This document shows positions 3,142 through 39,884 of a stretch of DNA of 40,889 nucleotides, in pieces. The DNA lies in the NCBI GenBank assembly GCA_036506575.1, contig DASXRM010000030.1, positions 1 to 40,889 on the forward strand, written 5' to 3'. Below the pieces are notes generated by a model. The model saw nothing but the letters and a program-made list of their open reading frames with translations, made no database searches and was not told the origin of the DNA. The stretch comes from Gemmatimonadales bacterium (GTDB lineage: Bacteria; Gemmatimonadota; Gemmatimonadetes; Gemmatimonadales; GWC2-71-9). Position numbers and translations under genes: made by a program. Position 1 is the first letter of the stretch; the number at the start of each line of letters is the position of its first letter.

Positions 3142-3153
3142 GTGTAAAAGAAG

Positions 3154-3387
3154 GCGGAACGGCGGTAGGGCGGAAGAGGCGGAGAGGGCGGAAGGAGCGG
3201 AAGAGGCGGAAGAGGCGGAAGAGGCGGATGGGAAAGACGTGCTAAGCCGGTACGCGGATCCTCATCCGGAACCTGTTTGGTAGGTCCCTCGCTACGCTCC
3301 GGATGAGGAACTCCGACTTACCGCTAATCCCCTTTCCACTATTCCGCACTTTCCGCACTTTCCGCACTTTCCGCCCTCTCCGCCCTC
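3154..3387. repeat. Inverted short-tandem-repeat hairpin module A (9-nt units)
   Basis: Left array 3154-3232 has 9 units: gcggaacg, gcggtagg, then GCGGAAGAG-type 9-mers x7. Right array 3334-3387 has TTCCGCACT x3 plus TTCCGCCCT and CTCCGCCCT, the reverse complement of GCGGAA-core units. The ~100 nt centre carries its own stem, CCTCATCCGGA (3260-3270) / TCCGGATGAGG (3298-3308). The right array ends flush with the stop codon (3388-3390) of the upstream minus-strand gene. Confidence 0.9.
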
Positions 3388-6300
3388 CTAGAACCCCGGC
3401 TGCAACTCAAACTGCCAGACCCATCCCCTTCCCGGCCGATCGAATGGCCGTACCAGATCCACTTCCGCGACGGCAAAACCGAGCAGGTTGATCCGGAGTC
3501 CCGCCCCGGCGCTGAAAACCGGATCCCGAGTCCCGGAGCCCAGCACCGATGGGTCGTGCTGGGTGTCCCAGGCGAGCCCTCCGTCGCCGAAGACCGCAAA
3601 TTCGAGAGGAAAAGCGCCGTAATAGCCCGAGCCGATCCCCAAGGCGCCGAAGAGCGGAAAGCGAAGTTCGGCGTTGGCGACCACGATCCTGCTGCCGAGC
3701 AACTGATCGAACACCGGACAAGAGTTGGGATCGTCTTTCGTTGGCTTACACTCGGAAGCGTCGAATGAGCCGTAGCCGTATCCTCTGACCAGCCCGGGGT
3801 AGCCCAAAAAGAGCGGCTGCAGCCGGGCATCTTCTCCATCCTTTCCGTACCGCCCGTAGTGCAGCAGTCGAGCGGCGAACGTGACCGGACGGACCGGCAT
3901 GAAGTACCTCCGGTAGTCTCCCAGAACTCCGACGAAACTCAACGAGCCAACCGTCGGTGACACTTCGAAGCGATAGCGTTGTCCGAGTATCGGGCTGGTC
4001 GCGCCGAAGAAGGAGTTGTCGTAGACCAAGGCGGCACTCGCCACACCGAGATTGAGCGACTTCCCCGCCGGGAGATCCACCTGGTCGTCCGCAATCACGT
4101 CACCGGTGACCAACGAGAAGGCTGTGGTGCGTAGCTCGTTGCTGAACGAGATGTTGGTGAGTCCGGCCTGGAACTCCACCCGCTGGACCGGGCTGAATGG
4201 ATAGGCCAGCTGGCCGAAGACATCCCGGTTGATCTGGCGCTGAATCAGCTGCTGGTCCACCAGGGCCGGCTCGCCATTTACGTTCGCGGTGCCTTCGGCA
4301 AAGCCTCCGGTGAGATACGGAGTCTGATCGGCACCCACCCCCCAATTGAGCCGGTGAGTCAGATTCTGGTAGGCAACCAGCGCGTTCACGTCCTTCAGGG
4401 TGCCCTGGACGTTCAGACCGGTGACGAGGTTATGATTGCCGAGAACGTCACTGAAGTAGAGCGACGCGCCTCCACCCACGTAGGTGCCGAAGTCGCTGCT
4501 TCCGAGTGCCAGCGACGGCCGGCCTACATAAGTCAGCGCCAGACCCGGATGGTACCGCTGCACCGGGAACTCGGAGTCCGCCGGGAGCCCGACCCGCGGA
4601 TTCTGCAGGAGCGGCAGCAGGATCTCCCCCGTGCGAGTGAGGGGCGGCAGGCTCCCTGCAGCGGGCACCGTAGTCGACCCATAGGCGCGGTAGGCGGTTG
4701 CCGGGGCCGAAGCAACCGCCGCCGGAGCATCGATGGCGTAGAGCTCGTAACCGTTGGCCCGAAAGAGGCTGTAAACCATGCGCCCGGATCGCTGGGCCAC
4801 GGAGAGGGCCGGACTGGTCTCGGAGATTCCGCTGACGCCGGTGAACAGATCCGTCACCTGCAGGCGCTGCCCACTCGCGAGGTCGGTCTTGTAAATGTTG
4901 GTGATCCCGTCAGGATCGGACAGGAAGTAGAGGCTCAATCCGTCGGGTGACCATTGGGGATCGAGCTCCCGACCGCCCTTCGCTCCAGTCACAGGCCGAA
5001 TGGAACCGGTCGCCACGTCCAGCAACGCCAGAGAGTAGGACCCGATACGGAGAGTGGACAGGTCTGTGCTGTATCGGTCGGTGACAAAGGCGAGCGTGCG
5101 CCCGTCAGGTGACCAGGCCGGCTGCAGGTCGGCAAATTGGTCATCGGTGAGCCGGCGGAGCTGCTTGTCCTCTAGACCATAGGTGTACAGCTCCGTCAGG
5201 CCTCCCGTGACCCCGGAGAAGGCGATGGACCGGCCGTCGGGCGACCAGCTCGGGTTGAGAATCTGCCCCAGTTGAGGGAACCGAGTCTCGCTCGTCCTCT
5301 TGCCCCGATCGACATCGTAGAGAACCAGCACCGGCCGCCCGGCGCTGATCGCGGCGAAGACGAACCGCTTGCCATCAGGAGACCAGCTCCCCGCCGACTC
5401 GATGAATTCCAGGCTCTGGAGGTGGGCGTCCACCGCCGTTTTGGTGACCTGACGCTCGATCTTTCCGGTTCTCGCATCGGCCAGGAACAGGTCAATTGAA
5501 AAAAGATCCCGGTCGGACAGAAACATCATCCGGGTCCCGTCCGGGCTCAGAGAGGGTGAGACGTTGTAGCGGGTCCCGTGACGGGCACCAACGACTCGGG
5601 GACCGAAGGTCTCGGGAGCACGGGCCTCGGCCAGCAGCGGGTCATAGGTCGCGTGGAGCTCCGCGTGCCACCGAGCCACCAACTCGTCGGGGCTGATTCC
5701 CAGAACCTCGCGGATGGCCGGATCCATGGCCCGCCGGCGGGCGGCCGCCCGCAGCAACTGTCCGATCGCCTGATCTCCCCAATGTCCTGCCACGTAAGCC
5801 AGGAGGGCATGGCCATACCGGTAGGGGAAGTAGCGGGGATCGTCGAGTTGCCTGTAGGTCGGGAGGGTATCTTTGGCCGTGTCCTGGATCGCGCCTCGCA
5901 TCCACATCGCCGTGGGCGCGTGGTTCGGGCCCAGGGAGCAATACTCAGCCATCCCCTCGATGAACCACAGGGGAAGCGCGGTTGCAGACGGGAGGGCGCC
6001 CAGATTTCCCGCTCGGCCATTGCCGGAAATGTCGTACTGAAACGCGTGGGTCAGCTCGTGGCCGATAACGTGGTTGAGATCGCCGAGGGTTCCTCCAATA
6101 GGCAGGACGATGCGCCGGCGGAGAGCTTCGGTAACCCCACCTGTCCCCTCTCCGAGATCGCCGCCGATGGCATTGGTCTGCTGGAATTCCGCGGAACTGG
6201 CATACAGGATGAGCGGCTGCCGGCCGGACAGCTCGTGTTTGAACATCGTCGACAGTCGGCTGAGCCACCGCTCGGCCATGCGCCCGGCGTCGCCGGCAGC

Positions 6301-6483
6301 GACCTGCTCGCTCGAGTAAAAATAGATGTCGAAGTGCTGGGTCTTTAGCACATGCCAGTCGAACTTGCCGTATTGAACCTTGTTGCGGCCGAAGTACTGG
6401 GCGTGGAGGGGGGATGCTACCGCCGTGAGAGCCAGCGTGACGAGCCAGAGAGTGCGGCGAGGGCCGCAGCGGGTGGACAACAT
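3388..6483 (-). CDS. Outer-membrane multidomain protein: N-terminal HEXXH metallopeptidase-like domain + TolB-like PD40 beta-propeller repeats + C-terminal Omp85/BamA-type barrel
   Basis: Signal peptide MLSTRCGPRRTLWLVTLALTAVASPLHAQ. 'HVIGHELTHAF' (HEXXH). Repeated 'SWSPDGKRFVF / SWSPDGRSIAF / AWSPDGRTLAF / QWSPDGLSLYF' PD40 motifs. The C-terminus 'ANAELRFPLF...AGAGLRINLLGFAVAEVDLVRPF...WQFELQPGF' ends in Phe as in beta-barrel OMPs. GGAGG lies 6 nt upstream of ATG 6483. Confidence 0.8.
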   Translation of the reverse strand: MLSTRCGPRRTLWLVTLALTAVASPLHAQYFGRNKVQYGKFDWHVLKTQHFDIYFYSSEQVAAGDAGRMAERWLSRLSTMFKHELSGRQPLILYASSAEFQQTNAIGGDLGEGTGGVTEALRRRIVLPIGGTLGDLNHVIGHELTHAFQYDISGNGRAGNLGALPSATALPLWFIEGMAEYCSLGPNHAPTAMWMRGAIQDTAKDTLPTYRQLDDPRYFPYRYGHALLAYVAGHWGDQAIGQLLRAAARRRAMDPAIREVLGISPDELVARWHAELHATYDPLLAEARAPETFGPRVVGARHGTRYNVSPSLSPDGTRMMFLSDRDLFSIDLFLADARTGKIERQVTKTAVDAHLQSLEFIESAGSWSPDGKRFVFAAISAGRPVLVLYDVDRGKRTSETRFPQLGQILNPSWSPDGRSIAFSGVTGGLTELYTYGLEDKQLRRLTDDQFADLQPAWSPDGRTLAFVTDRYSTDLSTLRIGSYSLALLDVATGSIRPVTGAKGGRELDPQWSPDGLSLYFLSDPDGITNIYKTDLASGQRLQVTDLFTGVSGISETSPALSVAQRSGRMVYSLFRANGYELYAIDAPAAVASAPATAYRAYGSTTVPAAGSLPPLTRTGEILLPLLQNPRVGLPADSEFPVQRYHPGLALTYVGRPSLALGSSDFGTYVGGGASLYFSDVLGNHNLVTGLNVQGTLKDVNALVAYQNLTHRLNWGVGADQTPYLTGGFAEGTANVNGEPALVDQQLIQRQINRDVFGQLAYPFSPVQRVEFQAGLTNISFSNELRTTAFSLVTGDVIADDQVDLPAGKSLNLGVASAALVYDNSFFGATSPILGQRYRFEVSPTVGSLSFVGVLGDYRRYFMPVRPVTFAARLLHYGRYGKDGEDARLQPLFLGYPGLVRGYGYGSFDASECKPTKDDPNSCPVFDQLLGSRIVVANAELRFPLFGALGIGSGYYGAFPLEFAVFGDGGLAWDTQHDPSVLGSGTRDPVFSAGAGLRINLLGFAVAEVDLVRPFDRPGRGWVWQFELQPGF

Positions 6484-7784: not shown

Positions 7785-7812
7785 TCGTACAGTCCCGCTG
7801 ATCCGAGGTTCC

Positions 7813-7851
7813 ACGAGGGGCGGCCCGCTGCTGGGGCGCCCCTCGTCTTTT
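7813..7851 (+). terminator. Rho-independent terminator/attenuator after fae
   Basis: Perfect 10-bp GC stem ACGAGGGGCG (7813-7822) / CGCCCCTCGT (7837-7846) followed by CTTTT (7847-7851). Confidence 0.7.
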
Positions 7852-13881: not shown

Positions 13882-13950
13882 TTACGGGAGCGATGGTCAT
13901 CCCTTCACCCTGCTTAGGGCAGGCTCTGAGCGGAGCGAAGGAGCCGAAGC

Positions 13951-25264: not shown

Positions 25265-26035
25265 TCACGCGTTTCGCGAACCGGCCTCCAGCAGAGCTTG
25301 ATCAGGTCCCTGAAGAGACCCCGAAGTCTCGTGAATCCTTCGCCGCAGCGCCCGGACTCGGTCCGAGGTCACCCGGCCTTGTCGTCCGCCCTCGCATGCG
25401 GCCCCCCGAACCCCGACCACGTCGGGAGCAGCCATACAAACCGCTTCCAGATCCTTCAAATCGAGTCCACCGGCCACCGCGCTGGCCAGACCGGCGCGGC
25501 GAGCGCACCCGACCCACTGCGCCAGAGCCGCCTCGCCGATCCAGGTGAAGAGACTCCGGCCGTTCTTGGTGTAGGTGTCCAACAGTACCCCGGTGGCACC
25601 CGATCGTGCCGCGACTCGGCCTATGGTATCAGGTGCGGCGGTGCCGGCGAGCATGAAATCGGCGTACGCCACCGGAACAATGTGCGGGCGGACTGGTTGT
25701 TTCGACGACGCCGCCACCGCTGTCATGATGAGCGCCTGGATCTGCTCGGGCGCAGATACTCCCGCGAAGCCCAGCTTGAGGTACAGGGGAGCCGGCCGGC
25801 TTGCGAGCGGGAGTGGTGAGATAGCGGCCAGAACTTCATCGGCTGTGGTTAGATCTCCCAGCGCGATGCTCGCCGCACGGTGCTTCGGAATCCGCGAGAG
25901 CAGCTCGGCGAGCACTTGGGCGGATACCGGCCCCAGGGGGCCACGCTCTGGCTCCTTGGCATCGATGATATCGGCTCCCCCGGCGAGTGCAGCTCCCACC
26001 TCCGCCGCACACCTCACGCTCACGAGCAACCGCAT
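25265..26035 (-). CDS. mfnB: (5-formylfuran-3-yl)methyl phosphate synthase (MfnB/DUF556), methanofuran biosynthesis
   Basis: 'MRLLVSVRCAAEVGAALAGGADIIDAKEPERGPLG' closely resembles the archaeal MfnB N-terminus. Length ~255 aa. Confidence 0.8.
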   Translation of the reverse strand: MRLLVSVRCAAEVGAALAGGADIIDAKEPERGPLGPVSAQVLAELLSRIPKHRAASIALGDLTTADEVLAAISPLPLASRPAPLYLKLGFAGVSAPEQIQALIMTAVAASSKQPVRPHIVPVAYADFMLAGTAAPDTIGRVAARSGATGVLLDTYTKNGRSLFTWIGEAALAQWVGCARRAGLASAVAGGLDLKDLEAVCMAAPDVVGVRGAACEGGRQGRVTSDRVRALRRRIHETSGSLQGPDQALLEAGSRNA

Positions 26036-26045
26036 TACCGCTCCC

Positions 26046-26073
26046 TTGTAAGATGCTAATGCACCGGTATGTT
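26046..26073 (+). promoter_or_regulatory. Weak sigma70-like promoter candidate for the SDR-pcd-DHPS-pabBA operon
   Basis: TTGTAA (26046-26051), 16 nt spacer, TATGTT (26068-26073), in the 88-nt divergent gap between mfnB and the SDR gene. Confidence 0.3.
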
Positions 26074-26123
26074 AGGATTTAGGAAGCTATCACCGGGCGG
26101 AATCCGAGGGGAGGCGGCGGCCA

Positions 26124-26873
26124 GTGTTGGAGCGGAAAAGCGTGCTGGTTACCGGAGCTTCCAGTGGAATCGGCCGCGCCATTGCGCTCCGCTGCGCTCA
26201 GGCGGGGGCCGATCTCGCCATAACGTATCGGAAAAATCAGCACGGTGCCGAGGCGACGGCTCGTGAGATCCGTGAGCTGGGCCGCCGGGTCGAAGTCATC
26301 CGCACCGACATCAGCCGGGATCAGGATATCGATGTGCTGGTGGGCCGATTACGGGACGCATTCGAGCGGCTGGACGTCTGGATCAACAACGCAGGCGCTG
26401 ACATTCTGACCGGCGAGGCGGCCCGTCTCTCCCGTCTTCAGAAGCTCGAGACGGTCATCGCTGTCGATCTCAAAGGAACCGTCCAGACATCCTGGGCGGC
26501 GGTGGGGCTGATGCAGCAGCAGGGAGGCGGCAGCATTATCAACCTGGCCTGGGATCATGTCGGCCAGGGTATGGAAGGAGAGAATCCCTCGGTCTACGCT
26601 GCAGCCAAGGGAGGGGTGGCGAGCTTCAGCCGATCGCTCGCGCGAGAAGTGGCCCCGACGATCCGCGTCAACATTCTCGCACCCGGCTTCATCGAGACTG
26701 CCTTCGGCGAGGAGGCCAATCCGAACTTTCGCCAAAAGGTCATCGAGATGACACCGCTTCGCCGCTGGGGCAAGCCCGAGGATGTCGCAGGCGCGGCAGT
26801 GTTCCTGGCCTCGGACGATTCGGCCTTTCTCACCGGGCAGACCATCATGGTGAACGGAGGAGTGGTGATGTGA
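26124..26873 (+). CDS. Short-chain dehydrogenase/reductase (FabG/FolM pteridine-reductase-like)
   Basis: 'VLVTGASSGIGRAIA' (TGxxxGIG), 'NNAG' and the catalytic 'YAAAK'. A pterin-related role is inferred from neighbours only. GTG start. Confidence 0.8.
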   Translation: MLERKSVLVTGASSGIGRAIALRCAQAGADLAITYRKNQHGAEATAREIRELGRRVEVIRTDISRDQDIDVLVGRLRDAFERLDVWINNAGADILTGEAARLSRLQKLETVIAVDLKGTVQTSWAAVGLMQQQGGGSIINLAWDHVGQGMEGENPSVYAAAKGGVASFSRSLAREVAPTIRVNILAPGFIETAFGEEANPNFRQKVIEMTPLRRWGKPEDVAGAAVFLASDDSAFLTGQTIMVNGGVVM

Positions 26874-26878
26874 AGGAA

Positions 26879-26990
26879 GGCTATGGGCTATTGGCTATGG
26901 GCTGTTGCGCAAAGTCGACCAGCTCGCCCTGTCGCTCACAGCTTAATTCCAAGACAGCATAGCCCATAGCGCATAGCTCATAGCCAACTA
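26879..26990. repeat. Inverted short-tandem-repeat hairpin module B (7-nt units)
   Basis: Left array: CTATGGG, CTATTGG, CTATGGG, CTGTTGC (26881-26908). Right array: AGCATAG, CCCATAG, CGCATAG, CTCATAG, CCAACTA (26956-26990), the reverse complement of CTATG-core units. The centre is ~47 nt. The right array abuts the GGAGG (26991-26995) RBS of the next gene. Confidence 0.9.
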
Positions 26991-27000
26991 GGAGGCAACG

Positions 27001-27363
27001 ATGCCCGCAACCAAAGAACGTACCTACAACGACACTGAAATCAACGAGCGGCTGAAGGAGCTGCCCGGCTGGTACTACGAGGATGGCTGGATTCGCCGAG
27101 TCTACAAGACCGACGGGTGGCCCACGACGTTGATGCTGGTCAATGCCCTCGGCTATCTCGCCGAGGCCGCCTATCACCACCCCGACCTGACCGTCACCTG
27201 GGGACGCATCATCGTCAAGCTCCAGAACCACGCGGCGGGCGGGATAACCGACAAGGACTTCGAGCTGGCTCGAAAGATCGAGGAGGTCGTCCTCTGGCGG
27301 CCTCAGGGTGGTGCGCTCGAGGGCACCCCGAACAAGTGGGTTCGGCCGGGGGATCCGCGGTAG
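27001..27363 (+). CDS. Pterin-4-alpha-carbinolamine dehydratase (PCD/DCoH family)
   Basis: 'ELPGWYYEDGWIRRVYKTDGWPTTLMLVNALGYLAEAAYHHPDLTVTWGRIIVKLQNH' is the canonical PCD core (HHPD...). AGGAGG RBS. Confidence 0.88.
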   Translation: MPATKERTYNDTEINERLKELPGWYYEDGWIRRVYKTDGWPTTLMLVNALGYLAEAAYHHPDLTVTWGRIIVKLQNHAAGGITDKDFELARKIEEVVLWRPQGGALEGTPNKWVRPGDPR

Positions 27364-27366
27364 AAA

Positions 27367-27503
27367 GGCGGACAGGCGGACCGGCGGACCGGACTTAACC
27401 GCGGATCCAATGTCGATCGAATCTGAGTTTCCCAACCGGCCCTCGGTCCGTACGTCTGAATCTTCCGCTCGTCCGTCCGCCGGTCCGCCCGTCCGCCGGG
27501 TCC
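27367..27503. repeat. Inverted short-tandem-repeat hairpin module C (8-nt units)
   Basis: Left array: GGCGGACA, GGCGGACC, GGCGGACC, GGAC (27367-27394). Right array: GTCC, GTCCGCCG, GTCCGCCC, GTCCGCCG, GGTCC (27471-27503). The centre is ~76 nt and contains ATG 27410 of the next gene. Confidence 0.9.
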
Positions 27504-28948
27504 TCTTCGTCACCGGCACTCTCGCCGAGCCGGCCCTTCGGCGGGTATTGGCGGAGATGCAACCGACCTTCGAGTCCAGGGTAGCGGTCCTCAGGATCAC
27601 CGTGGCCGCGTTGATGACCACGCCTTGGATAGCTCGACATCTCGAAGTCCCCTCCGACATCGACTTGGTGCTCATCCCCGGCCTCTGTGAAGGGGATCCA
27701 ACCATTCTGAAGGAGCGGTTTGGGGTGCCGGCGGAGAAGGGTCCCAAAGATCTCCGCGAGATCCCGCGCTACTTCGGCCAGGCTCAGGCGGCGCTGGATT
27801 ATGGCCGTTACTCCATCGAGATCCTGGCCGAGATCAACAACGCGCCGAAGCTTTCGCCTGGCGAGGTTCGGGCCGCCGCGGACTATTTGCGGGCGAGCGG
27901 CGCCGACCTGATCGATGTCGGCTGCACTCCAGGTTTCCCCTTTCCCGAGTTGGGTAACCTGGTGAGCGAGTTGCGCGGTGCCGGCGTGCGGGTCAGCATC
28001 GACAGCTTCGACCGGGCCGAGATCCGCTCGGCGGTCGCAGCCGGTGCCGAGCTGGTGTTGAGTGTGAACCGATCCAACCTTGAGGTAGCGCGGGAGTTCG
28101 GGGGCACCGGCACGCGGGTCGTGGTGATCCCTGATCACGGCGAGGGCATCGACACTCTCGACCGTAGCATCGCTGCCCTGGAACGCTGGAACGTACGCTA
28201 CCTCATCGATCCGGTCATCGAGCCGATCGGGTTCGGCTTCATGGCCTCGCTGGAGCGGTACGCCGAGATCCATCGCCGGTACCCGACGTCCGCTCAACTC
28301 ATGGGGGTCGGAAATATCACCGAGCTCACCAGCGCCGATTCGACCGGGGTCAACGCCGTCCTGTTGGCCATCTGCGAGGAGGTGGGTGTCCGCGCCGTGC
28401 TGACGACGGAGGTGATTCCGTGGGCGCGCGGTGCGGTCCGGGAGATCGATGTCGCCCGCCGGTTGATGCACTACGCCGTGACCAACCGGACGGTGCCCAA
28501 GGGGGTGGATGACCGGCTCCTCACCGTGAAGGACCCGGTCATTCTGGAGTACGATGAAAGCGAGTTGCGCGAGCTCCAGGCGGCGGTGCGGGATCCGAAT
28601 TTTCGTATCTTCACCGACCGGCAGACCATCACCGTGTTCAACAACGAGATCTTCGTCCGTGGCACCGATATCCAGGTCATCTTCTCGCAGCTCGGCGTCG
28701 ACGAACCCACCCATGCGTTCTATCTGGGCCGCGAGCTCATGAAGGCCAAGCTGGCCATTACTCTCGGTAAGACTTATCGGCAGGAAGGCGCTCTCAGCTG
28801 GGGGTACCTCACGCCGCCCGACGACGTCAAGTCTGAGCATGTAAAGCTGACCCAGCGGTCGCGGAAGAGGCGGGATAGCGAGTCAGCGGGGAAGCAGGGA
28901 AGCGGGGCCGGCAAGCGCCAACGGGGCGGCGGGGCAGCAGAGGGGTGA
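27410..28948 (+). CDS. Dihydropteroate-synthase-related protein of H4MPT biosynthesis islands
   Basis: N-terminal 'VLFVTGTLAEPALRRVL'. The pterin-binding-barrel-like region has 'GADLIDVGCTPG', 'VSIDSF', 'LVLSVN' and 'MGVGNITELT'. ATG 27410 is the only canonical in-frame start I found (codon scan by eye) between the module's left arm and that conserved segment; track start 27308 overlaps pcd. Basic low-complexity C-tail. Confidence 0.75.
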   Translation: MSIESEFPNRPSVRTSESSARPSAGPPVRRVLFVTGTLAEPALRRVLAEMQPTFESRVAVLRITVAALMTTPWIARHLEVPSDIDLVLIPGLCEGDPTILKERFGVPAEKGPKDLREIPRYFGQAQAALDYGRYSIEILAEINNAPKLSPGEVRAAADYLRASGADLIDVGCTPGFPFPELGNLVSELRGAGVRVSIDSFDRAEIRSAVAAGAELVLSVNRSNLEVAREFGGTGTRVVVIPDHGEGIDTLDRSIAALERWNVRYLIDPVIEPIGFGFMASLERYAEIHRRYPTSAQLMGVGNITELTSADSTGVNAVLLAICEEVGVRAVLTTEVIPWARGAVREIDVARRLMHYAVTNRTVPKGVDDRLLTVKDPVILEYDESELRELQAAVRDPNFRIFTDRQTITVFNNEIFVRGTDIQVIFSQLGVDEPTHAFYLGRELMKAKLAITLGKTYRQEGALSWGYLTPPDDVKSEHVKLTQRSRKRRDSESAGKQGSGAGKRQRGGGAAEG

Positions 28949-30528
28949 ACGAGTACTTCCAGCCGTTGGTTGAGCCGCTCGGACAGACGGCCGAACCGGC
29001 CGATGTGTGCTCCCGGTTCTTGGATCTTCCCTATCTCATTCTTCTCGACAGCGCGGCGATGCATCCGCATCCGAGCCGAAACTCGGCTGCCGGTCTCGCC
29101 GGCGAAGGGCAGGACCTGCAGCAGTACTCTTTTCTGGCAGCCGATCCGGCCTCGGTAGTGCGGAGCAAGGGTACTGCAACCGAGATCCGGCAGAGGGGGC
29201 ACCACGCCTGGACCCCGGTTTCCGGCGATGCATTGAGCGTGGCGCGAGGATTTCTCCCTCGCGAAACCACCCCACCGATCTCCGGCCTGCCTCCCTTTCA
29301 AGGTGGCTTAGCGGGATATATCGGGTACGACTGGGGCGCGGTGCTCGAGCGGCTGCCGCTCCCGCGATACGACGATCTCGCCATTCCCGACGTGATGTTG
29401 GGACTCTATGACTGGGTGATTGCTTGGGACCACCGGATCGGCACCGCTTGGCTGATCTCGACCGGCCTGCCCGAGAGGGGAACCGCCCGAGAGCGGCGCG
29501 CGCGGGAGCGGATGGATCTGGTACGGGAGAGGCTGGGTGGGCGGGGCGGCAGTGGGGCGGGTGCCACCATGACGGCTGGGCCGGGTACCCGCGAAGCGGG
29601 TGGAGGCAGCGCGGCAGCACGGCAGGATGTAATTGCCGCCCCGTCTTATCCAGTCAGCGGGATCGAAGGCGCCCAAGAGATCGATCTCCGCTCGACCTTC
29701 ACCCACCGGGGCTACCTCGATGCCGTCAGCCGGGTGCGGGAATACATCATCGCGGGCGACATCTTTCAGGCCAACCTTTCCCAGCGCTTTCAGACCCGGT
29801 TGCCGGAGCCAGCGTTCGAGCTCTACCGCCGGCTGCGCCGTCGCAATCCGGCGCCGTTCGCGGGGTATCTCGACTTCGGAGAGCTAGCGGTTCTCAGCGC
29901 GTCACCGGAGCGCTTTCTGCGGCTGGATGCGGAGCGTCGCCTCGTCGAGACCCGGCCCATCAAGGGCACCAGGCCCCGCGGCTTGGGACCGATGCACGAT
30001 GCGGCGCTGGGCCGCGCGCTGGCCGAGAGCGAGAAAGACCGGGCGGAGAACGTCATGATCGTCGACCTGCTGCGCAACGATCTCTCGCGGGTGTGCCGGC
30101 CGGGCACAGTCCGGGTTCCCGAGCTCTTCGCGCTCGAACATCATCCGACCGTTCACCACCTCGTGTCTACGGTCCTGGGCGAGCTCGAGCCCGAAGCGGA
30201 TGCGATCGATCTCATCCGTGCCGCCTTTCCCGGCGGCTCCATTACCGGTGCACCGAAAGTACGAGCCATGGAGATCATCGCGGAACTGGAGCCGACCCAG
30301 CGGGGCGTGTACTGCGGGTCGATCGGGTATCTCAGCGTCACCGGGGCGATGGATACCAGCATCGTCATTCGAACCTATCTGGCGCTTCGCGGGGAGCTAT
30401 ACTTTCAGGCCGGAGGAGGCATCGTCGCCGACTCGGATCCCGAGCTGGAGTACCGGGAGACGCTGGATAAGGCGCGCGGGTTGATCGATACGCTTTGTGA
30501 GTCGCGAGTTGCGAGTCGCGAGTCATGA
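28945..30528 (+). CDS. pabB: Aminodeoxychorismate synthase component I (chorismate-binding enzyme)
   Basis: 'IFQANLSQRF', 'SASPERFL', 'IKGTRPRG', 'FPGGSITGAPKVRAMEII', 'RGVYCGSIGY' and 'GGGIVADSDPELEYRET'. pabB rather than trpE is inferred from the pabA/mptG context. GTGA overlap with the upstream gene. The last 10 codons lie in repeat module D. Confidence 0.82.
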   Translation: MNEYFQPLVEPLGQTAEPADVCSRFLDLPYLILLDSAAMHPHPSRNSAAGLAGEGQDLQQYSFLAADPASVVRSKGTATEIRQRGHHAWTPVSGDALSVARGFLPRETTPPISGLPPFQGGLAGYIGYDWGAVLERLPLPRYDDLAIPDVMLGLYDWVIAWDHRIGTAWLISTGLPERGTARERRARERMDLVRERLGGRGGSGAGATMTAGPGTREAGGGSAAARQDVIAAPSYPVSGIEGAQEIDLRSTFTHRGYLDAVSRVREYIIAGDIFQANLSQRFQTRLPEPAFELYRRLRRRNPAPFAGYLDFGELAVLSASPERFLRLDAERRLVETRPIKGTRPRGLGPMHDAALGRALAESEKDRAENVMIVDLLRNDLSRVCRPGTVRVPELFALEHHPTVHHLVSTVLGELEPEADAIDLIRAAFPGGSITGAPKVRAMEIIAELEPTQRGVYCGSIGYLSVTGAMDTSIVIRTYLALRGELYFQAGGGIVADSDPELEYRETLDKARGLIDTLCESRVASRES

Positions 30529-30632
30529 GTCACGAATCATAAGCCACGAGCCAGGATGCTCTCAGTGGAGAACGCAGCCACCTCAGGTCCGCGACTCGCG
30601 ACTCGTAACTCGTGACTCATGACTCATGACTA
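30497..30632. repeat. Inverted short-tandem-repeat hairpin module D (7-nt units, GANTC-rich)
   Basis: Left array has 8 units (30497-30552): GTGAGTC, GCGAGTT, GCGAGTC, GCGAGTC, ATGAGTC, ACGAATC, ATAAGCC, ACGAGCC. Right array has 6 units (30591-30632): GCGACTC, GCGACTC, GTAACTC, GTGACTC, ATGACTC, ATGACTA. The centre is 38 nt. The pabB stop (30526-30528) lies inside unit 5. Confidence 0.9.
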
Positions 30633-30644
30633 CCACCTACTCTG

Positions 30645-31319
30645 ATGATCCTTCTCATCGACAACTACGACTCCTTCGTCTACAACCTCGCTCGCTACGT
30701 GCGGGAGCTGGGGGAAACTCCGCTGGTGCGTCGTCACGATGCCATCTCGGTCGACGAGATCCTCGAGCTGGCCCCGTCTCATATCATCATCTCTCCGGGA
30801 CCTTGCTCGCCCAAGGAAGCCGGGATTTCCACCGAAGTGGTCCGCCGGGCCGGTGCCCGCATCCCCATTCTTGGCGTGTGTCTAGGGCATCAGTGCATCG
30901 GCGCGGCCTATGGAGGGGAGATCGTCCGGGCCGGTCTGCCGATGCACGGGAAGACCTCGCGGATCCATCATTCGGGCGTTGGTCTTTTCGCCGGCGTGCC
31001 GAACCCTTTCATGGCCACGCGATATCATTCGTTGGTGATCGCGCCGGCATCGATCCCGCCTGTGCTTGCCGTGACCGCCACCTCGGAAGACGGTGAGATC
31101 ATGGCGGTCCAGCATTTGGAGCATCCGGTCTCCGGCGTCCAATTTCATCCCGAGTCGGTTCTGACCGAGCATGGGTATCGCATCCTCGACCATTTTCTCC
31201 ACGGTGTGCCGGCATCCCCCCGGGTAGTGCCTCAGGCCGCGGACGGCGCACTGGTGACCGTCCGTCCCGAGACGAACACTCTGGCGTCCGCGCCTCCGCC
31301 GGTCGACCTGGTTCGGTGA
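30645..31319 (+). CDS. pabA: Aminodeoxychorismate/anthranilate synthase component II (class-I glutamine amidotransferase)
   Basis: 'MILLIDNYDSFVYNL', 'IIISPGPCSP', 'ILGVCLGHQCIG' (nucleophile Cys) and 'GVQFHPES'. Confidence 0.9.
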   Translation: MILLIDNYDSFVYNLARYVRELGETPLVRRHDAISVDEILELAPSHIIISPGPCSPKEAGISTEVVRRAGARIPILGVCLGHQCIGAAYGGEIVRAGLPMHGKTSRIHHSGVGLFAGVPNPFMATRYHSLVIAPASIPPVLAVTATSEDGEIMAVQHLEHPVSGVQFHPESVLTEHGYRILDHFLHGVPASPRVVPQAADGALVTVRPETNTLASAPPPVDLVR

Positions 31320-31861
31320 TTCTCGAGACGATCGTCACGACCCTCGACTCGCGAGGCGCCATCAACTTCGCGCCGATGGGAGTGGAATGGGGCGATGAGA
31401 CGATCGTCCTCAAGCCTTTTCTCGAGACCACCACCTTCCGCAACGTGAGCGACACCGGTGCAGCCGTGGTAAACCTGACCGACGACGCGATGCTGTTCGC
31501 CCAGGGCGCGATCTCGAGCCCGCAGTTCCCCTCGGTTCCCGCCAGCGTGGTTCGGGGCGTGGTGCTCGAGGCCGCCTGCTCCTGGCGGGAGCTCGAAGTG
31601 CTGGCCATCGACGCTACGCCACCCCGGTCCCGCATCGAGACCCGGGTGGTTCACCGGGGCATGCGGCGCGAGTTCATCGGATTCAATCGCGCGCGTAATG
31701 CGGTCCTCGAGGCTGCCATTCTCGCCACCCGAACTCATCTACTTCCGGCCGACCAGATTCGTGAGGAGTACGCGCGACTCCAGATCGTGGTAGACAAGAC
31801 TGCCGGGCCGCGGGAGCGGGAAGCGATGGAGCTCCTGACCCGGTATGTCCACTCCCGCTAG
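31316..31861 (+). CDS. DUF447-family protein (FMN-binding split-barrel-like) of H4MPT islands
   Basis: 'ILETIVTTLDSRGAINFAPMGV' N-terminus and ~180 aa length. GTGA overlap with pabA and a 17-nt overlap with mptG. Confidence 0.65.
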   Translation: MILETIVTTLDSRGAINFAPMGVEWGDETIVLKPFLETTTFRNVSDTGAAVVNLTDDAMLFAQGAISSPQFPSVPASVVRGVVLEAACSWRELEVLAIDATPPRSRIETRVVHRGMRREFIGFNRARNAVLEAAILATRTHLLPADQIREEYARLQIVVDKTAGPREREAMELLTRYVHSR

Positions 31862-32819
31862 CGTCCTCGTCGAGGCCCCTGCCCGCCTCCACTTCGGGAT
31901 CCTCGATCTGCGGGGCCGGCTGGGCCGCTGTTTTGGCGGCCTGGGAGCGGCGGTTCCCTGCCCCTCGCTCCTGATCGAGGCGGCCCCGGCGGACCGGGTT
32001 TCCGCCGAAGGACCCGATGCCGACCGGGCGATCGAATTCGCCGGCCGGTTTCTGGCTTATCACCGGCTCTCCGCCGGCGTGCACGTCATCGTTCATCGGG
32101 CGATCCCGAGCCACTCGGGTTTGGGATCCGGAACCCAGCTCGCATTGGCCGTGGCCCGAGGCCTGGCCGAGCTGCACGGGCTCCCGACTGACGCGGTGGA
32201 GCTGGCGCGCTCGACGGGCCGGGGCAAACGCTCGGCGATAGGCACTTGGACCTTCGCCCTGGGCGGCTTCGTCGTGGAGGGTGGCCGGCGCCCGGGATCC
32301 GAGAAGATCGCGCCGCTCCTGGCTCGGTTTCCGATTCCACCATCGTGGCGCTGTGTCGTCGCCGTGCCCTCCGACGGCCGGGGCCTGAGCGGTGACGCAG
32401 AGGCCCGAGCATTCGACCAGCTCCCGTCCCCACCCGACGAGGAGGTCGAGCGAGTCTCTCATCTGGTGCTCATGCAGCTGCTCCCGGCGCTGGTGGAGGA
32501 GGACCTGCCGAGCTTCGGAGACGCGTTATCCGCGGTGCAGCGGATTACCGGCGCCTGGTTCGCGGCTCAACAGGGCGGCACCTTCGCGCCTGGTCCGACT
32601 GAGCAGCTGGTGGCTGATATGGCCAGGTGGGGCGCCGCCGGCGTGGGCCAGAGCTCCTGGGGTCCAGCCGCGTACGGGCTGGTGGAAAGCGAATCTGCGG
32701 CCGGTGCACTGGCCCGGCGAGTCGAGCGGGTGCTGGGCTCCAGAGGCCAGGTGTTTCAGGGGGGATTTGCCGCTCAGGGAGCCCGGGTTTGGAGCGCTCA
32801 GACAGCCTCCCCACGCTGA
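31845..32819 (+). CDS. mptG: Beta-ribofuranosylaminobenzene 5'-phosphate synthase (GHMP-kinase fold)
   Basis: 'VEAPARLHFGILDL' and 'AIPSHSGLGSGTQLALAVA' (GHMP motif). It sits directly downstream of the pABA synthesis genes that make its substrate. Confidence 0.82.
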   Translation: MSTPASVLVEAPARLHFGILDLRGRLGRCFGGLGAAVPCPSLLIEAAPADRVSAEGPDADRAIEFAGRFLAYHRLSAGVHVIVHRAIPSHSGLGSGTQLALAVARGLAELHGLPTDAVELARSTGRGKRSAIGTWTFALGGFVVEGGRRPGSEKIAPLLARFPIPPSWRCVVAVPSDGRGLSGDAEARAFDQLPSPPDEEVERVSHLVLMQLLPALVEEDLPSFGDALSAVQRITGAWFAAQQGGTFAPGPTEQLVADMARWGAAGVGQSSWGPAAYGLVESESAAGALARRVERVLGSRGQVFQGGFAAQGARVWSAQTASPR

Positions 32820-33505: not shown

Positions 33506-35323
33506 ATGAACCGTTTTGCGCAGAAGGTAGTGTCTGGCGGGCTCGCCGCGGGGCTTTCGGTAGCCGTGGCGTTGTCGGCCAGCGCCCAACAGGCACGGTC
33601 AGGGGCATGGACCCTGAATGCGCCCGAGGGCGAATGGCACATGACCGGTCGTGATTACAGCCTGCAGCGGTTCAGCCCGCTCAAGCAGATCACGACGTCG
33701 AACGTGGCCGAGCTCCGGCCCGTCTGGTCGTTCTCGACCGGGACGCTTCGGGGGCACGAGGGCAACCCGCTCGTCATCGGCAACGTGATGTACGTGCACA
33801 CGTCCTTCCCCAACATCGTGTACGCGCTCGACCTCTCCAAGCCCGGCGCGCCGATGATCTGGAAGCACGTGCCCAACCAGTCGCCCGACGCGATTCCTAT
33901 CGCCTGTTGCGACCTGGTGAACCGGGGCACGGCGTATCACCCGAGCGGCAAGATCTTCATTCAGTTGCTCCAGGGTGAGCTGCTCGCGCTCGATGCCAAG
34001 ACCGGTAAGGAGCTGTGGAAGGTGAAGAATGCCGACTACAAGCAGGGCTCCACGATGACCAACGCCCCGATCGTGATCAAGGACATCGTCATCGCCGGCA
34101 TTTCGGGTGGTGAGTTCGGGGTCCGCGGCCGGGTGACGGCGTACAACGTGAACGACGGGAAAGAAGTCTGGCGCGGCTATAGCACCGGGCCGGACAGCGA
34201 AGTCCTCCTCGAGGGCGACGCCAACCCGAATTATCCGTCCCACCGGGGCAAGGACCTTGGGGTCTCGACCTGGCAGGGCGACGAATGGAAGCGGGGCGGC
34301 GGCACCACCTGGGGCTGGTACTCCTACGACCCCGAGCTGAACCTCTTCTATTACAGCACCGGGAACCCGGGCACCTGGAATCCTGACCAGCGGCCGGGCG
34401 ACAACAAGTGGTCCATGACCATCTTCGCCCGCAATCCGGACAACGGGAAGGTGAAGTGGGCCTACCAGATGACGCCCCACGATGAGTGGGACTACGATGG
34501 CGTCAACGAGAACGTCCTGTTCGAGCAGGGCGGGAAGAAGCTGTTGGCGCACTTCGACCGGAACGGCTTCGGCTATACCCTCGACCGGACCACCGGCAAG
34601 GTCCTCGTCGCCCAGCCCTATGGTCCAGTCAATTGGGCCAAGCGGGTTGACCTGACGACCGGCGTGCCGGAAAAGGATCCGAAGTACGGCACCACCTCGA
34701 AGAAGAACACCGAGGGCATCTGCCCGGCGGCGATCGGCTTCAAGGATCAGCAGCCGGCGGCCTACTCGCCGCAGACTGGCCTCTTCTACGTCCCGGCAAA
34801 CCACATCTGCATGGACTATGAGGGCGTCGAGGTGAAGTACACCGCTGGTCAGCCGTACGTCGGCGCGATCGTGCGGATGTTCCCGGGCCCGGGCGGGCAC
34901 CGGGGCAACTTCATCGCCTGGGACCCGATGAAGGGCAAGGCGGTGTGGTCGAACAAGGAGAACCTCGCGGCCTACGGCGGGGCGCTCACCACGGCGGGCG
35001 GACTGGTCTTCTACGGCACCATGGAAGGCTGGCTCAAGGCGCTTGACCAGAAGACCGGCAAGAGCCTGTGGCAGTTCAAGACCCCGTCGGGCATCATCGG
35101 CAACCCGATGACCTACAACGGTCCCGATGGCCAGCAGTACGTGGCCGTGCTCTCGGGCATCGGTGGTTGGGCCGGTATCGGCGTGGCCGCCGGCATCGGC
35201 GCCGAAGATCCCACTGCCGGTCTGGGCGCGCTGGGCGCGTTCGGCGACGCGGGGAACTTCAGCAACCAGGGTGGCGTCTTGACCGTCTTCGGGCTCAAGA
35301 ACCCGAGCACGGGAAAGATGTAG
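33506..35323 (+). CDS. xoxF: PQQ-dependent methanol/alcohol dehydrogenase, XoxF (lanthanide) type
   Basis: Signal peptide MNRFAQKVVSGGLAAGLSVAVALSASAQQ. Vicinal Cys 'IACCDLVNRG' (33905-33910). 'HDEWDYDGVNE' carries the D-Y-D signature (34490-34498) where Ca-MxaF has an Ala in place of the second Asp. Eight-bladed W-rich propeller sequence. GAGG lies 6 nt before ATG 33506; track start 33317 is rejected. Confidence 0.92.
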   Translation: MNRFAQKVVSGGLAAGLSVAVALSASAQQARSGAWTLNAPEGEWHMTGRDYSLQRFSPLKQITTSNVAELRPVWSFSTGTLRGHEGNPLVIGNVMYVHTSFPNIVYALDLSKPGAPMIWKHVPNQSPDAIPIACCDLVNRGTAYHPSGKIFIQLLQGELLALDAKTGKELWKVKNADYKQGSTMTNAPIVIKDIVIAGISGGEFGVRGRVTAYNVNDGKEVWRGYSTGPDSEVLLEGDANPNYPSHRGKDLGVSTWQGDEWKRGGGTTWGWYSYDPELNLFYYSTGNPGTWNPDQRPGDNKWSMTIFARNPDNGKVKWAYQMTPHDEWDYDGVNENVLFEQGGKKLLAHFDRNGFGYTLDRTTGKVLVAQPYGPVNWAKRVDLTTGVPEKDPKYGTTSKKNTEGICPAAIGFKDQQPAAYSPQTGLFYVPANHICMDYEGVEVKYTAGQPYVGAIVRMFPGPGGHRGNFIAWDPMKGKAVWSNKENLAAYGGALTTAGGLVFYGTMEGWLKALDQKTGKSLWQFKTPSGIIGNPMTYNGPDGQQYVAVLSGIGGWAGIGVAAGIGAEDPTAGLGALGAFGDAGNFSNQGGVLTVFGLKNPSTGKM

Positions 35324-35386
35324 TTCCCGTAATCCGGTAGGGACGGAGGCTCCCCTCCGGCCTCACCGGGGGTAGATTACAAAAAT

Positions 35387-35430
35387 GAGAGCGGCGTCGG
35401 GGTGCGGTTCGCTCCGGCGCCGTCTCTTTT
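35387..35430 (+). terminator. Possible attenuator/terminator between xoxF and xoxJ
   Basis: Stem GAGA(G)CGGCG (35387-35396) / CGCCGTCTC (35418-35426) with one bulge and a 21-nt loop, followed by TTTT (35427-35430). Confidence 0.35.
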
Positions 35431-39383: not shown

Positions 39384-39884
39384 ATGAACGTCCGACCACC
39401 CTGGCTGGCTGCGGCGGCGTTGCCGCTGCTCCTGGCCGCCGACGCTTCGGGGCCGGTTCCCAGCACCTTTCAGTTCGACGCCGATGCCCGGCCCGAGCTT
39501 CATCGACTCTGGGACGTCAGCTCGGCGGCAAAGGCCGAGCGGGTCGCCTGTCTGGCGGCTACGATCGAGGGCGATACCGTCCGAATCTCGCGCGTGCTCC
39601 CACTCGAGCCGGGCCGGGCGGACTCGCTAGGCATATCGGCGGGTGCCTCGCTCGACAGTTGCGGCCCACCTGAGTGGCTGGGCACCGTGCACACTCACGT
39701 GGCGCTTCGAGACGGTCAGCGGCCCTACTCTCTGTTCTCGGGAGCCGATCGAGGGGTCATGATGCTGTGGTGGAGACGCTGGAAGGTCGACGGGATCTTC
39801 TGCTTGCTTTACAGCGGGGAGGAAGTGATCTGCGAGATCGAGGGACCGGGCGGTGCCGTGCTCTTCCCCCGCTCGCACTACTGA
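39384..39884 (+). CDS. Exported JAMM/MPN+-like metalloprotein, paralog 1
   Basis: Signal 'WLAAAALPLLLAADA'. 'ERVACLAATIEGDTVRISRV' (E-x-x-C/G-x-L), 'GTVHTH' (HxH) and 'FSGADR' (S-x-x-D). Four Cys conserved with paralog 2. Starts 10 nt after the propeller gene. Confidence 0.6.
   Translation: MNVRPPWLAAAALPLLLAADASGPVPSTFQFDADARPELHRLWDVSSAAKAERVACLAATIEGDTVRISRVLPLEPGRADSLGISAGASLDSCGPPEWLGTVHTHVALRDGQRPYSLFSGADRGVMMLWWRRWKVDGIFCLLYSGEEVICEIEGPGGAVLFPRSHY

Follow-up and report, generated by a model that had tools for sequence, protein, structure and literature searches.

Four intergenic hairpin modules, each made of two arrays of one short tandem unit facing each other in opposite orientation across a loop, are present in a 40,889-nt stretch of DNA from a Gemmatimonadales bacterium (the window hereafter, these 40.9 kb being all of this genome at hand). 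We propose that the modules, named A to D, are members without an open reading frame (ORF) of a widespread family of foldback elements of the intervening-sequence (IVS) type, whose copies come and go at gene ends and change by slippage, a reading to which we assign a probability of roughly 0.55. The proposal is built on orthologous junctions that are either empty or filled among related genomes, and on arrays of the same architecture found around small four-helix-bundle genes of the family PF05635 in metagenomes, finished genomes and one 23S rRNA gene (see below).

Four inverted-array modules in the window

The modules have the following parts:

3152-3228: left array of module A, GGCGGAAGA-type, period 9, about 8.8 units (Tandem Repeats Finder)
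3229-3336: centre of module A, with a nested inner palindrome at 3256-3313
3337-3387: right array of module A (3337-3383 in Tandem Repeats Finder), TTCCGCACT / CTCCGCCCT-type
26879-26985: module B, with left array 26879-26907 (GGCTATG, period 7), centre 26908-26956 and right array 26957-26985 (CATAGCC)
27367-27499: module C, with left array 27367-27392 (GGCGGACC, period 8) and right array 27470-27499 (GTCCGCCN; 27475-27499 in Tandem Repeats Finder)
30495-30631: module D, with left array 30495-30549 (GAGTCGC, period 7), centre 30550-30589 and right array 30590-30631 (GCGACTC / CATGACT)

Tandem-repeat and inverted-repeat finders agree with the first-pass annotation of this DNA, which had placed four hairpin modules at these sites. 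The strongest pairs that the inverted-repeat finder gave for the whole window (I1-I11, 73-96% complementary) are those of modules A-D, with arm complementarities of 73-76% in A (I1-I3), 88% in B (I9) and 96% in C (I8), and with D represented by I4-I6 and I10-11. The RNA fold energies of A, B, C and D amount to -130.3, -50.7, -76.7 and -70.2 kcal/mol, with z-scores of -6.4, -4.5, -5.2 and -7.4, and none of 200 shuffles was as stable (0/200), so that all four fold far better than shuffled controls. Stems have some 25-55 nt per arm, and the centres, of 38-108 nt, contain no PF05635 ORF. We called a module strict when it had two arrays of at least 2.5 copies each, with units reverse-complementary at no more than one mismatch. 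By this definition the window holds three modules and 100 dinucleotide-shuffled windows hold none, and its tandem arrays number 12 versus 1.96 expected from dinucleotide shuffles. Module A is missed solely because, of its 9-nt unit, no more than a 6-nt core (GCGGAA/TTCCGC) is matched between the arms; its outer units mirror each other and its inner units differ in variant between the arms. In two independent assemblies from other samples, L001 (JGI) and L002 (Logan), modules B and C are nearly identical to those of the window, and they are therefore not an assembly artefact. The four modules are real, non-chance hairpins. The inverted-array architecture that was said to define the family is found in all four copies, with about 3-9 units per array in place of the 4-9 first reported. 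The statement that copies share neither unit nor period was drawn from these four alone and needs qualifying, since single units recur at 2-5 sites in Gemmatirosa and heptamers fall into few classes (see below).

All four modules are fitted closely between genes. Module A occupies the entire 246-nt spacer from the stop of a minus-strand gene (3388-6483) to the start of another minus-strand gene (529-3141). Module B begins 5 nt past the stop codon of an SDR gene (26871-26873) and ends 15 nt before the ATG at 27001 of the gene for a pterin-4a-carbinolamine dehydratase (pcd), sparing an AGGAGG. Module C begins 3 nt past the stop of this dehydratase gene (27361-27363), the conserved start of the next protein, DUF6513/pterin-binding and MptH/DHPS-like, being at 27497. 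Module D stands between a pabB-like gene and pabA (ATG 30645); the final codons of the former, with its stop (30526-30528), fall inside the left arm. Pfam gene identities confirm that B, C and D lie at gene ends of one cofactor operon, and the positions can be refined in two respects: the pabB-like stop falls inside an arm, and A, too, separates co-directional genes, on the minus strand.

In the remaining intergenic spacers of the window we saw ordinary hairpins, some with T-runs, and no further module. Terminator-like, G+C-rich hairpins with T-runs stand at other gene ends, at 7810-7850 and 35385-35430, and the organism appears to use canonical intrinsic terminators, unlike the modules. Terminator and promoter scans gave nothing at any module, and the right arms are not followed by T-runs. 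Rfam, searched with the entire window, returned nothing at the gathering threshold.

Filled and empty junctions in related genomes

Scanning one genome per species yielded 80 orthologous loci of the operon that contains B, C and D (L003-L082), all from Gemmatimonadales metagenome-assembled genomes with 73-87% protein identity. Gene order is identical in 80 of 80. In about 25 loci the spacer between pcd and the MptH-like gene (pcd-mptH) measures 5-30 nt, and in about 40 it contains a module and spans 96-147 nt; that between SDR and pcd has either 17-40 or 90-145 nt; and pabB and pabA overlap, lie a few nt apart, or are 50-200 nt apart. Occupancy is patchy on a protein-distance dendrogram; the window, L003 and L004, though the closest three, do not have the same sites filled, and at least one strict module is present in the operon core of 29 of the 81 loci. 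Empty and filled orthologous junctions are what had been predicted for insertion or loss at gene ends, and the further copies expected in relatives have been found both here and in a Gemmatirosa replicon (see below).

The period is constant for each junction, 8 at pcd-mptH and 7 at SDR-pcd and pabB-pabA, and the unit is not. Across loci we found GCGGGGAA, GCGGGGCA, GCGGGTAA, GGCGGAAC, GGCGGTAA, GGCGGACA and GGCGGTCA at pcd-mptH, and GGCTATG, AGTCGCG, GGGAGTC, GGTCGTC, CTAGTCA and GAGAGTC at SDR-pcd, always with a matching right arm. In fourteen loci the pcd-mptH spacer has precisely 101 nt, and its centre is recognisably homologous among them. In twelve of these sequences, taken as an ungapped set, 7 of 21 stem pairs show double compensatory changes (AU to CG or the reverse), which hit the identical unit position in every repeat; we conclude that the two arms evolve in concert.

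These 101 nt correspond to an ancestral 11 nt plus 90, i.e. the module is an exact 90-nt in-frame gain ahead of the MptH-like domain. The ancestral start of the MptH/DHPS-like gene is a GTG or ATG that lies within the dehydratase gene, 25 nt from its 3' end, and the frame is open from the ancestral GTG across the whole module in 13 of the 14 loci. In the window, the reading frame from the ancestral start is broken, and the sole in-frame start for the DHPS-like gene is an ATG at 27410, in the loop of module C, with no obvious ribosome-binding site. As this start lies in the loop, the right arm of module C is probably translated.

Adjacent junctions of one genome often use one unit, e.g. GCGGGGCA at up to four sites in L018, L023 and L044, which suggests that units may spread over short range.

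Arrays around four-helix-bundle genes and in phages

A set of 80 metagenomic loci was picked by the protein family PF05635 alone, of which 71 genes had enough flanking sequence. Arrays are found within 200 nt upstream of 48 of these genes, downstream of 62, and on both sides of 45, and matched inverted arrays (units reverse complements with at most one mismatch) bracket 38 of the 71. Array density reaches 4.5 per kb within 200 nt of the genes versus 0.60 per kb beyond 400 nt, and the period is 7 in 130 of 138 arrays near them. The units vary by locus (GAGGCTG, AGGCTGA, GAGTCTG, TAGGCTG, AGGCTTG and others), and the arrays adjoin start and stop codons of the neighbouring genes. Many of the retrieved genes are on very short contigs, and arrays may break short-read assemblies.

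Viral contigs, scanned with a pattern for heptamer arrays of the GAGTC type, yielded high-GC phage contigs with ORF-less inverted arrays at many junctions of structural operons, and portal and capsid genes were confirmed in module-bearing contigs. One of them (L136, IMG/VR 3300035688_000092) has six modules in 14 kb, with units related and not identical; L166, L192, L115, L126 and L151 are other module-rich, high-GC contigs. For the module-rich contigs no cultured relative was found above ~26% identity to the portal protein. Several phage contigs have arms that differ systematically at one unit position, e.g. GAGAGTT vs CTCCCAA. At L177:425-784 a 119-aa ORF lies between GAGTCTG x4 and its inverted copy and matches PF05635 (E 1.5e-31) and TIGR02436, a version with an ORF in the centre such as the first-pass annotation had envisaged; viral contigs searched with this protein alone gave only 2 loci. 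At one phage junction, AGTCT in some orthologous elements is AGGCT in others, and the change affects both arms. Heptamer units fall into few classes, with AGTC or GGCT cores, which are also seen in PF05635-flanking arrays.

The window modules have the traits of the cargo-bearing elements, namely two arrays of one 7-11-nt unit in opposite orientation at a site between the stop and start codons of neighbours. Among the PF05635-flanking arrays, the AGTCT and AGGCT classes are similar to the units of D (GAGTCGC) and B (GGCTATG); for the units of A and C, with their GCGG core, nothing close is seen beyond arrays of the same 8-nt period that flank such genes in Gemmatirosa and Nostoc punctiforme. 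Handedness is also common to them. The G-rich arm is the 5' arm in 42 of 46 modules of the Gemmatimonadales operon, in 34 of 54 viral ones versus 13, and in 49 of 56 at four-helix-bundle loci. All four window modules have it on the 5' side, a property independent of the strand read, and so do all but one of the Gemmatirosa modules, by a reading of the listed units.

Finished genomes and a 23S rRNA intervening sequence

Examples in finished genomes were obtained by tblastn against plasmid records. In a plasmid of Gemmatirosa kalamazoonensis (Gemmatimonadaceae), which is cultured and belongs to the order of the window's bacterium, a complete ORF-less hairpin (GAGGGCAG x4.4 / CTGCCCTC x4) precedes a four-helix-bundle gene, whose stop codon is followed at once by CTCCTGCC x4.2, the same 8-nt unit GAGGGCAG inverted. 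This replicon of 340 kb holds about 23 ORF-less modules with periods of 7-11, and several units recur at 2-5 sites, each time with a different loop. The modules lie in co-directional, convergent and divergent spacers, at positions that are approximate given the crude gene calls. Many modules of this Gemmatirosa plasmid 1, also ones with differing arm units, share an apical stem, (R)AACCAAC...GTTGGTT(Y), next to the loop (e.g. L281:24310-24401, 33665-33741, 34251-34327 and 39577-39625), a possible common recognition element. The stem AACCAAC..GTTGGTT is absent from the four modules of the window.

In Nostoc edaphicum pNe_5 (L288) a four-helix-bundle gene with AGTAGGG / TCCCTAC arrays lies antisense between the genes for the beta and alpha subunits of ribonucleotide reductase, and in a plasmid of Calothrix PCC 7716 (L289) gene and arrays lie antisense between HlyD-like and ABC transporter (secretion) genes. 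Antisense placement of gene and arrays is also observed at a phage junction in L201-L209. Around the N. punctiforme gene the arrays have period 8. Finally, on the 750-kb plasmid AZO_p2 of Azospirillum lipoferum 4B (L291:530-994), GAGGACG x3.9, an ORF and the inverted array x4.1 lie inside a 23S rRNA gene, identified by the large-subunit rRNA (LSU) model with 903 bits, and the four-helix-bundle ORF is unannotated there. This is a classical 23S rRNA IVS. The link to four-helix-bundle genes and 23S rRNA IVSs that the first-pass annotation had proposed is thus found in 38 of 71 metagenomic loci, in finished genomes and in one 23S rRNA gene.

Origin and role of the modules

The pairing of the arms was examined for signs of a selected RNA structure. 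Among 78 filled orthologous spacers, the sense strand is the more stable in 38 and the antisense strand in 40 (Wilcoxon p = 0.48), and G-U pairs number 272 vs 282, with no asymmetry in either case. On phage contigs with known gene orientation the strand test gave 6 vs 2, not significant with only 8 usable modules. Permuting unit order in one arm leaves complementarity no lower in three data sets, without position-specific compensation, i.e. what the arms have in common is the unit type of their arrays and not a match pair by pair. Arm lengths can differ greatly, e.g. 27 vs 5 units, and this inequality, together with the differing inner and mirrored outer units of module A, points to independent expansion of each arm by slippage. 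With neither strand asymmetry nor unit-by-unit compensation, covariation of the arms is therefore by itself no evidence for an RNA role; a selected RNA function of the modules, though still conceivable, is unproven.

In the proposed family, an element has two arms of one 7-11-nt unit, in tandem and in opposite orientation, with the G-rich arm nearly always 5'. The loop between them is a short, unique one in the window modules, and in other members it is the site of a small PF05635 gene ("23S rRNA intervening-sequence protein"); the classical 23S rRNA IVS has the same architecture, lodged in rRNA. In Gemmatimonadales the elements lie exactly between a stop and the next start, or in tolerant protein linkers and termini, and come and go on the time scale of species divergence; each arm expands and homogenises through slippage, the two staying matched in unit consensus. 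A module would be co-transcribed with its operon and fold into a long imperfect stem re-joining stop and start codons, a likely RNase III substrate by analogy with published work on rRNA IVSs. As folding would keep stop and start together, insertion would be tolerated and nearly harmless; it might also cut the polycistronic mRNA in two or make it more stable. Were the C-rich arm the first to be transcribed, a Rho-loading site would be exposed, which may be why the 5' arm tends to be G-rich. If the modules prove to excise themselves from RNA, they would provide synthetic operons with natural insulators, and the question is approachable in cultured Gemmatirosa, Nostoc, Xanthomonas and Azospirillum, by asking whether RNase III cuts the stems and whether the four-helix-bundle protein binds or builds the arrays.

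Several observations weigh against this proposal. By tblastn with the PF05635 protein, neither the window nor any of the 80 loci, up to 6 kb from the operon, yielded such a gene; what ties the ORF-less modules to the cargo elements is therefore their common architecture, handedness, placement and unit classes and not direct descent. Comparison of filled with empty sites gave no visible target-site duplication, and blastn of 37 module centres against all loci gave no cross-site homology save for a short motif of a second repeat family (see below); classical copy-and-paste mobility is therefore not demonstrated. The right-arm unit at pcd-mptH resembles the sequence at empty sites (..CTCCCCGC), so that birth in situ fits as well as insertion. 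Strict modules are also about 44 times denser in the 3.5-kb segment from the end of SDR to the start of pabA (39 in 270 kb summed) than in the flanks (1 distinct in 606 kb), which would be odd for a randomly inserting selfish element, the loci not being independent and their shared ancestry inflating these counts. A miniature inverted-repeat transposable element (MITE) was ruled out by the missing similarity among centres and the missing target-site duplication.

The modules could instead be RNA hairpins selected by the host, which as processing sites, 3'-end stabilisers, or devices of translational coupling or start occlusion would set the expression of cistrons, the repeats being incidental. 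We take this for a real if minor possibility. Modules adjoin stop and start codons, are concentrated in one operon segment and fill the same junctions in many genomes, with arms that co-vary across orthologues and a 101-nt spacer length kept in 14 loci, and phage late operons carry them at many junctions, like the RNase III sites of phage T7. Such a role is hard to reconcile with close relatives that have no module at the same junction in an otherwise unchanged operon, with the equal folding of sense and antisense strands, with arms of very unequal length and unmirrored variant order, and with the same construction in rRNA, protein linkers and convergent or divergent spacers. Termination or attenuation inside the operon by intrinsic hairpins of the U-tract-less ("I-shaped") kind, to which long G+C-rich stems directly after stop codons might point, seems to us extremely doubtful: the right arms have no T-run and the terminator scan is empty at the modules, ordinary hairpins with T-runs exist elsewhere in the window, and the genes downstream share the pathway and, in relatives, show tight coupling.

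A purely mutational by-product, with neither element nor function, would arise if slippage amplified gene-end sequence and intramolecular template switching (quasi-palindrome correction or foldback priming) inverted the copy. The similarity of the pcd-mptH right-arm unit to empty sites, the independent expansion of arms (with the inner and outer units of module A and the unmirrored unit order), site-specific centres, partnerless half-arrays and the lack of strand asymmetry all fit. We nevertheless find it rather unlikely, as it leaves unexplained why a single protein family should be so strongly associated with the arrays across phyla, why a unit returns at sites far apart in one genome, together with conserved apical stems, and why handedness is near-universal. 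Still more speculative is that arrays are built in situ, a short template being copied reiteratively onto the 3' ends flanking a break or nick with the four-helix-bundle protein as dedicated factor. This would explain a common unit without common variant order, site-specific units and unequal arm lengths, and also a G-rich strand running 5' to 3' towards the centre, as after telomere-like addition to both ends. The protein, which has weak scores for PF22296 and NF033474, would within that scheme be a homologue of Avd, the obligatory partner of the reverse transcriptases of diversity-generating retroelements, and the ORF-less modules would be non-autonomous products of a new kind of self-propagating element without transposase. 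Least credible, along with the terminators, are sites acting at the DNA level, either cruciforms or hairpins that serve recombination in the manner of integron attC, or arrays that bind protein as iterons do and promote the exchange of gene modules. Conservation of architecture and not of sequence, and a position at gene boundaries, are hallmarks of attC, modules are frequent at phage gene boundaries, and strand asymmetry is absent. We set attC aside since gene order is fixed in all 80 loci, with junctions unlike cassette boundaries and no rearrangement breakpoints in the operon, and since no core sites (R''/R'; GTTRRRY / RYYYAAC) are visible by eye in the arms; iterons were considered and set aside too, units differing between sites in a way that no single sequence-specific binder fits. 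An IVS-type foldback family, gained and lost at gene ends, is the reading that we keep.

Host operon and traces of modules in coding sequence

The genes around modules B, C and D were named from Pfam:

25265-26035, minus strand: 4-HFC-P synthase
26124-26873, plus strand: SDR
27001-27363, plus strand: Pterin_4a (pterin-4a-carbinolamine dehydratase, pcd)
~27410-28948, plus strand: DUF6513 + pterin-binding (MptH/DHPS-like)
28945-30528, plus strand: chorismate-binding (pabB-like)
30645-31319, plus strand: GATase (pabA)
31316-31861, plus strand: DUF447
31845-32819, plus strand: GHMP-kinase-like
26124-31319, plus strand: host operon segment with B, C and D (SDR to pabA), syntenic in 80/80 Gemmatimonadales loci
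28868-28945, plus strand: G-rich half-array, GCGGAAGA / AGCGGGGA-type, period 8, with no C-rich partner (28885-28907 in Tandem Repeats Finder)
~29540-29650, plus strand: decayed module in a variable linker of the pabB-like gene, GGGCGGGGCGGCAGTGGGGCGGG ... GGCAGCGCGGCAGCACGGCAGG ... TGCCGCCCCG (29605-29625 in Tandem Repeats Finder)

The Pfam names suggest that 25265-32819 may be a methanopterin/methanofuran-type cofactor cluster, conserved across Gemmatimonadales. The last two features, decayed half-arrays inside coding sequence, had escaped the first-pass annotation. The former is translated as a non-conserved C-terminal tail of the MptH/DHPS-like protein, at a junction where relatives bear GCGGGGCA x4. 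In the pabB-like linker, L023, L044 and L064 have an intact in-frame hairpin (GCGGGGCA x4 / CCGCCCCG x5), which reads as Gly/Arg/Ala-rich and Pro-rich protein stretches. Modules shift starts and add translated tails or linkers, at the N- and C-termini of the MptH-like protein and the C-terminus and linker of pabB, and automatic annotation will therefore be wrong at such genes and unreliable for the MptH-like start.

A second palindromic repeat family, conserved in sequence (GTCATCC..GAGCG..CGCTC..GGATGAC-like; here GGATCCTCATCCGGA / TCCGGATGAGGAACTCC), sits inside the loop of module A (3256-3313). It is also present at L063:334-361, in the pabB-pabA spacer of L014, in the SDR-pcd spacers of L046 and L061 and at 13882-13950 of the window, and in some relatives it stands at junctions instead of the tandem-array module.

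Relation to known systems

The foldback (FB) transposons of Drosophila have long inverted arms of short tandem repeats, a variable loop and optional cargo. Their likeness to the modules is architectural only, as they are eukaryotic and of kilobase scale, and have no sequence or protein relationship. Rickettsia palindromic elements are palindromic repeats inserted in frame into protein genes and translated, which recalls the 90-nt in-frame gain ahead of the MptH-like domain in 14 loci and the translated pabB-linker hairpin; they form sequence-conserved families, without tandem-repeat arms. In phage T7, imperfect intercistronic hairpins are RNase III sites; for these PMC4990558 refers to Dunn and Studier (1973). 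They stand between cistrons of long operons, like the modules at many phage junctions here, and differ in not being built of tandem repeats and in that their cleavage has been demonstrated.

In Escherichia coli, repetitive extragenic palindromic (REP) sequences are mRNA stabilisers or translation modulators. REPs, with the composite BIME and REPIN (PMC3116915), are intergenic hairpin repeats within operons, often just past stop codons, and the recurrence of a Gemmatirosa unit at several sites is reminiscent of them. A REP is a single conserved palindrome of ~20-40 nt mobilised by a RAYT transposase (IS200/IS605-like), whereas here arms are tandem arrays with units varying by site. No RAYT turned up, though no search was aimed at it, and we set REP/REPIN aside because units and centres differ between the four copies (37 centres without cross-site homology, with 40.9 kb of the genome considered).

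Xanthomonas genomes carry 70-75 inverted pairs of GGGAATC arrays each, mostly between aligned ORFs and no more than 50 bp from stop or start codons (Rehm et al. 2015, PMC4692102). Tandem 7-nt units, inverted ("convergent") pairs with the G-rich array first, and variation of length and presence between related species are common to both (PMC4692102). That unit is genome-wide and was read by the authors as a G-quadruplex former, with no link to PF05635 genes reported (PMC4692102), whereas we have analysed many units as hairpins; a Xanthomonas-type single GGGAATC unit does not describe the window, where Tandem Repeats Finder lists at least five distinct array units within 40 kb. Upstream of start codons in Beggiatoaceae, Cyanobacteria and Bacteroidetes there are direct TAACTGA repeats (MacGregor 2015, PMC4679880), which, like the cyanobacterial short tandemly repeated repetitive (STRR) sequences, are intergenic tandem heptamers near starts with a patchy distribution across phyla. 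They were described as direct repeats (169 direct sets vs one indirect, in "Maribeggiatoa") with no cargo noted (PMC4679880). The cyanobacterial arrays of the Nostoc and Calothrix plasmids bracket four-helix-bundle genes. In the open-access full-text literature we found no paper that links the IVS, Xanthomonas and TAACTGA observations, describes arrays bracketing PF05635 genes, or describes ORF-less copies in operons and phages.

The IVS of Coxiella has a 28-bp terminal stem cut by RNase III, an S23p ORF and 2-3 tandem heptamers (GACAGAT) varying between strains, and excision by RNase III is documented in Coxiella, Salmonella and Leptospira (PMC4990558). With the 23S rRNA IVSs of Coxiella, Leptospira and Azospirillum the modules share complementary termini forming a long stem around a loop, variable tandem heptamers, and tolerance within a transcribed unit. 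The window copies differ from them in lying between protein cistrons and not in rRNA helix 25 or 45, in having no ORF, and in the period of 8 or 9 of two of the four; an IVS lodged in 23S rRNA was set aside for the window itself, given this location, the absence of an Rfam match and loops without PF05635 ORFs, the trait of a long stem of complementary termini being present. The IVS with its "S23p" ORF, the abundant four-helix-bundle genes, the heptamers of the cyanobacterial STRR and the G-rich pairs of Xanthomonas have so far been described separately, without accepted function or origin. Our comparison suggests that these four are faces of one element type, which would also populate operon junctions, protein linkers and the late operons of phages.

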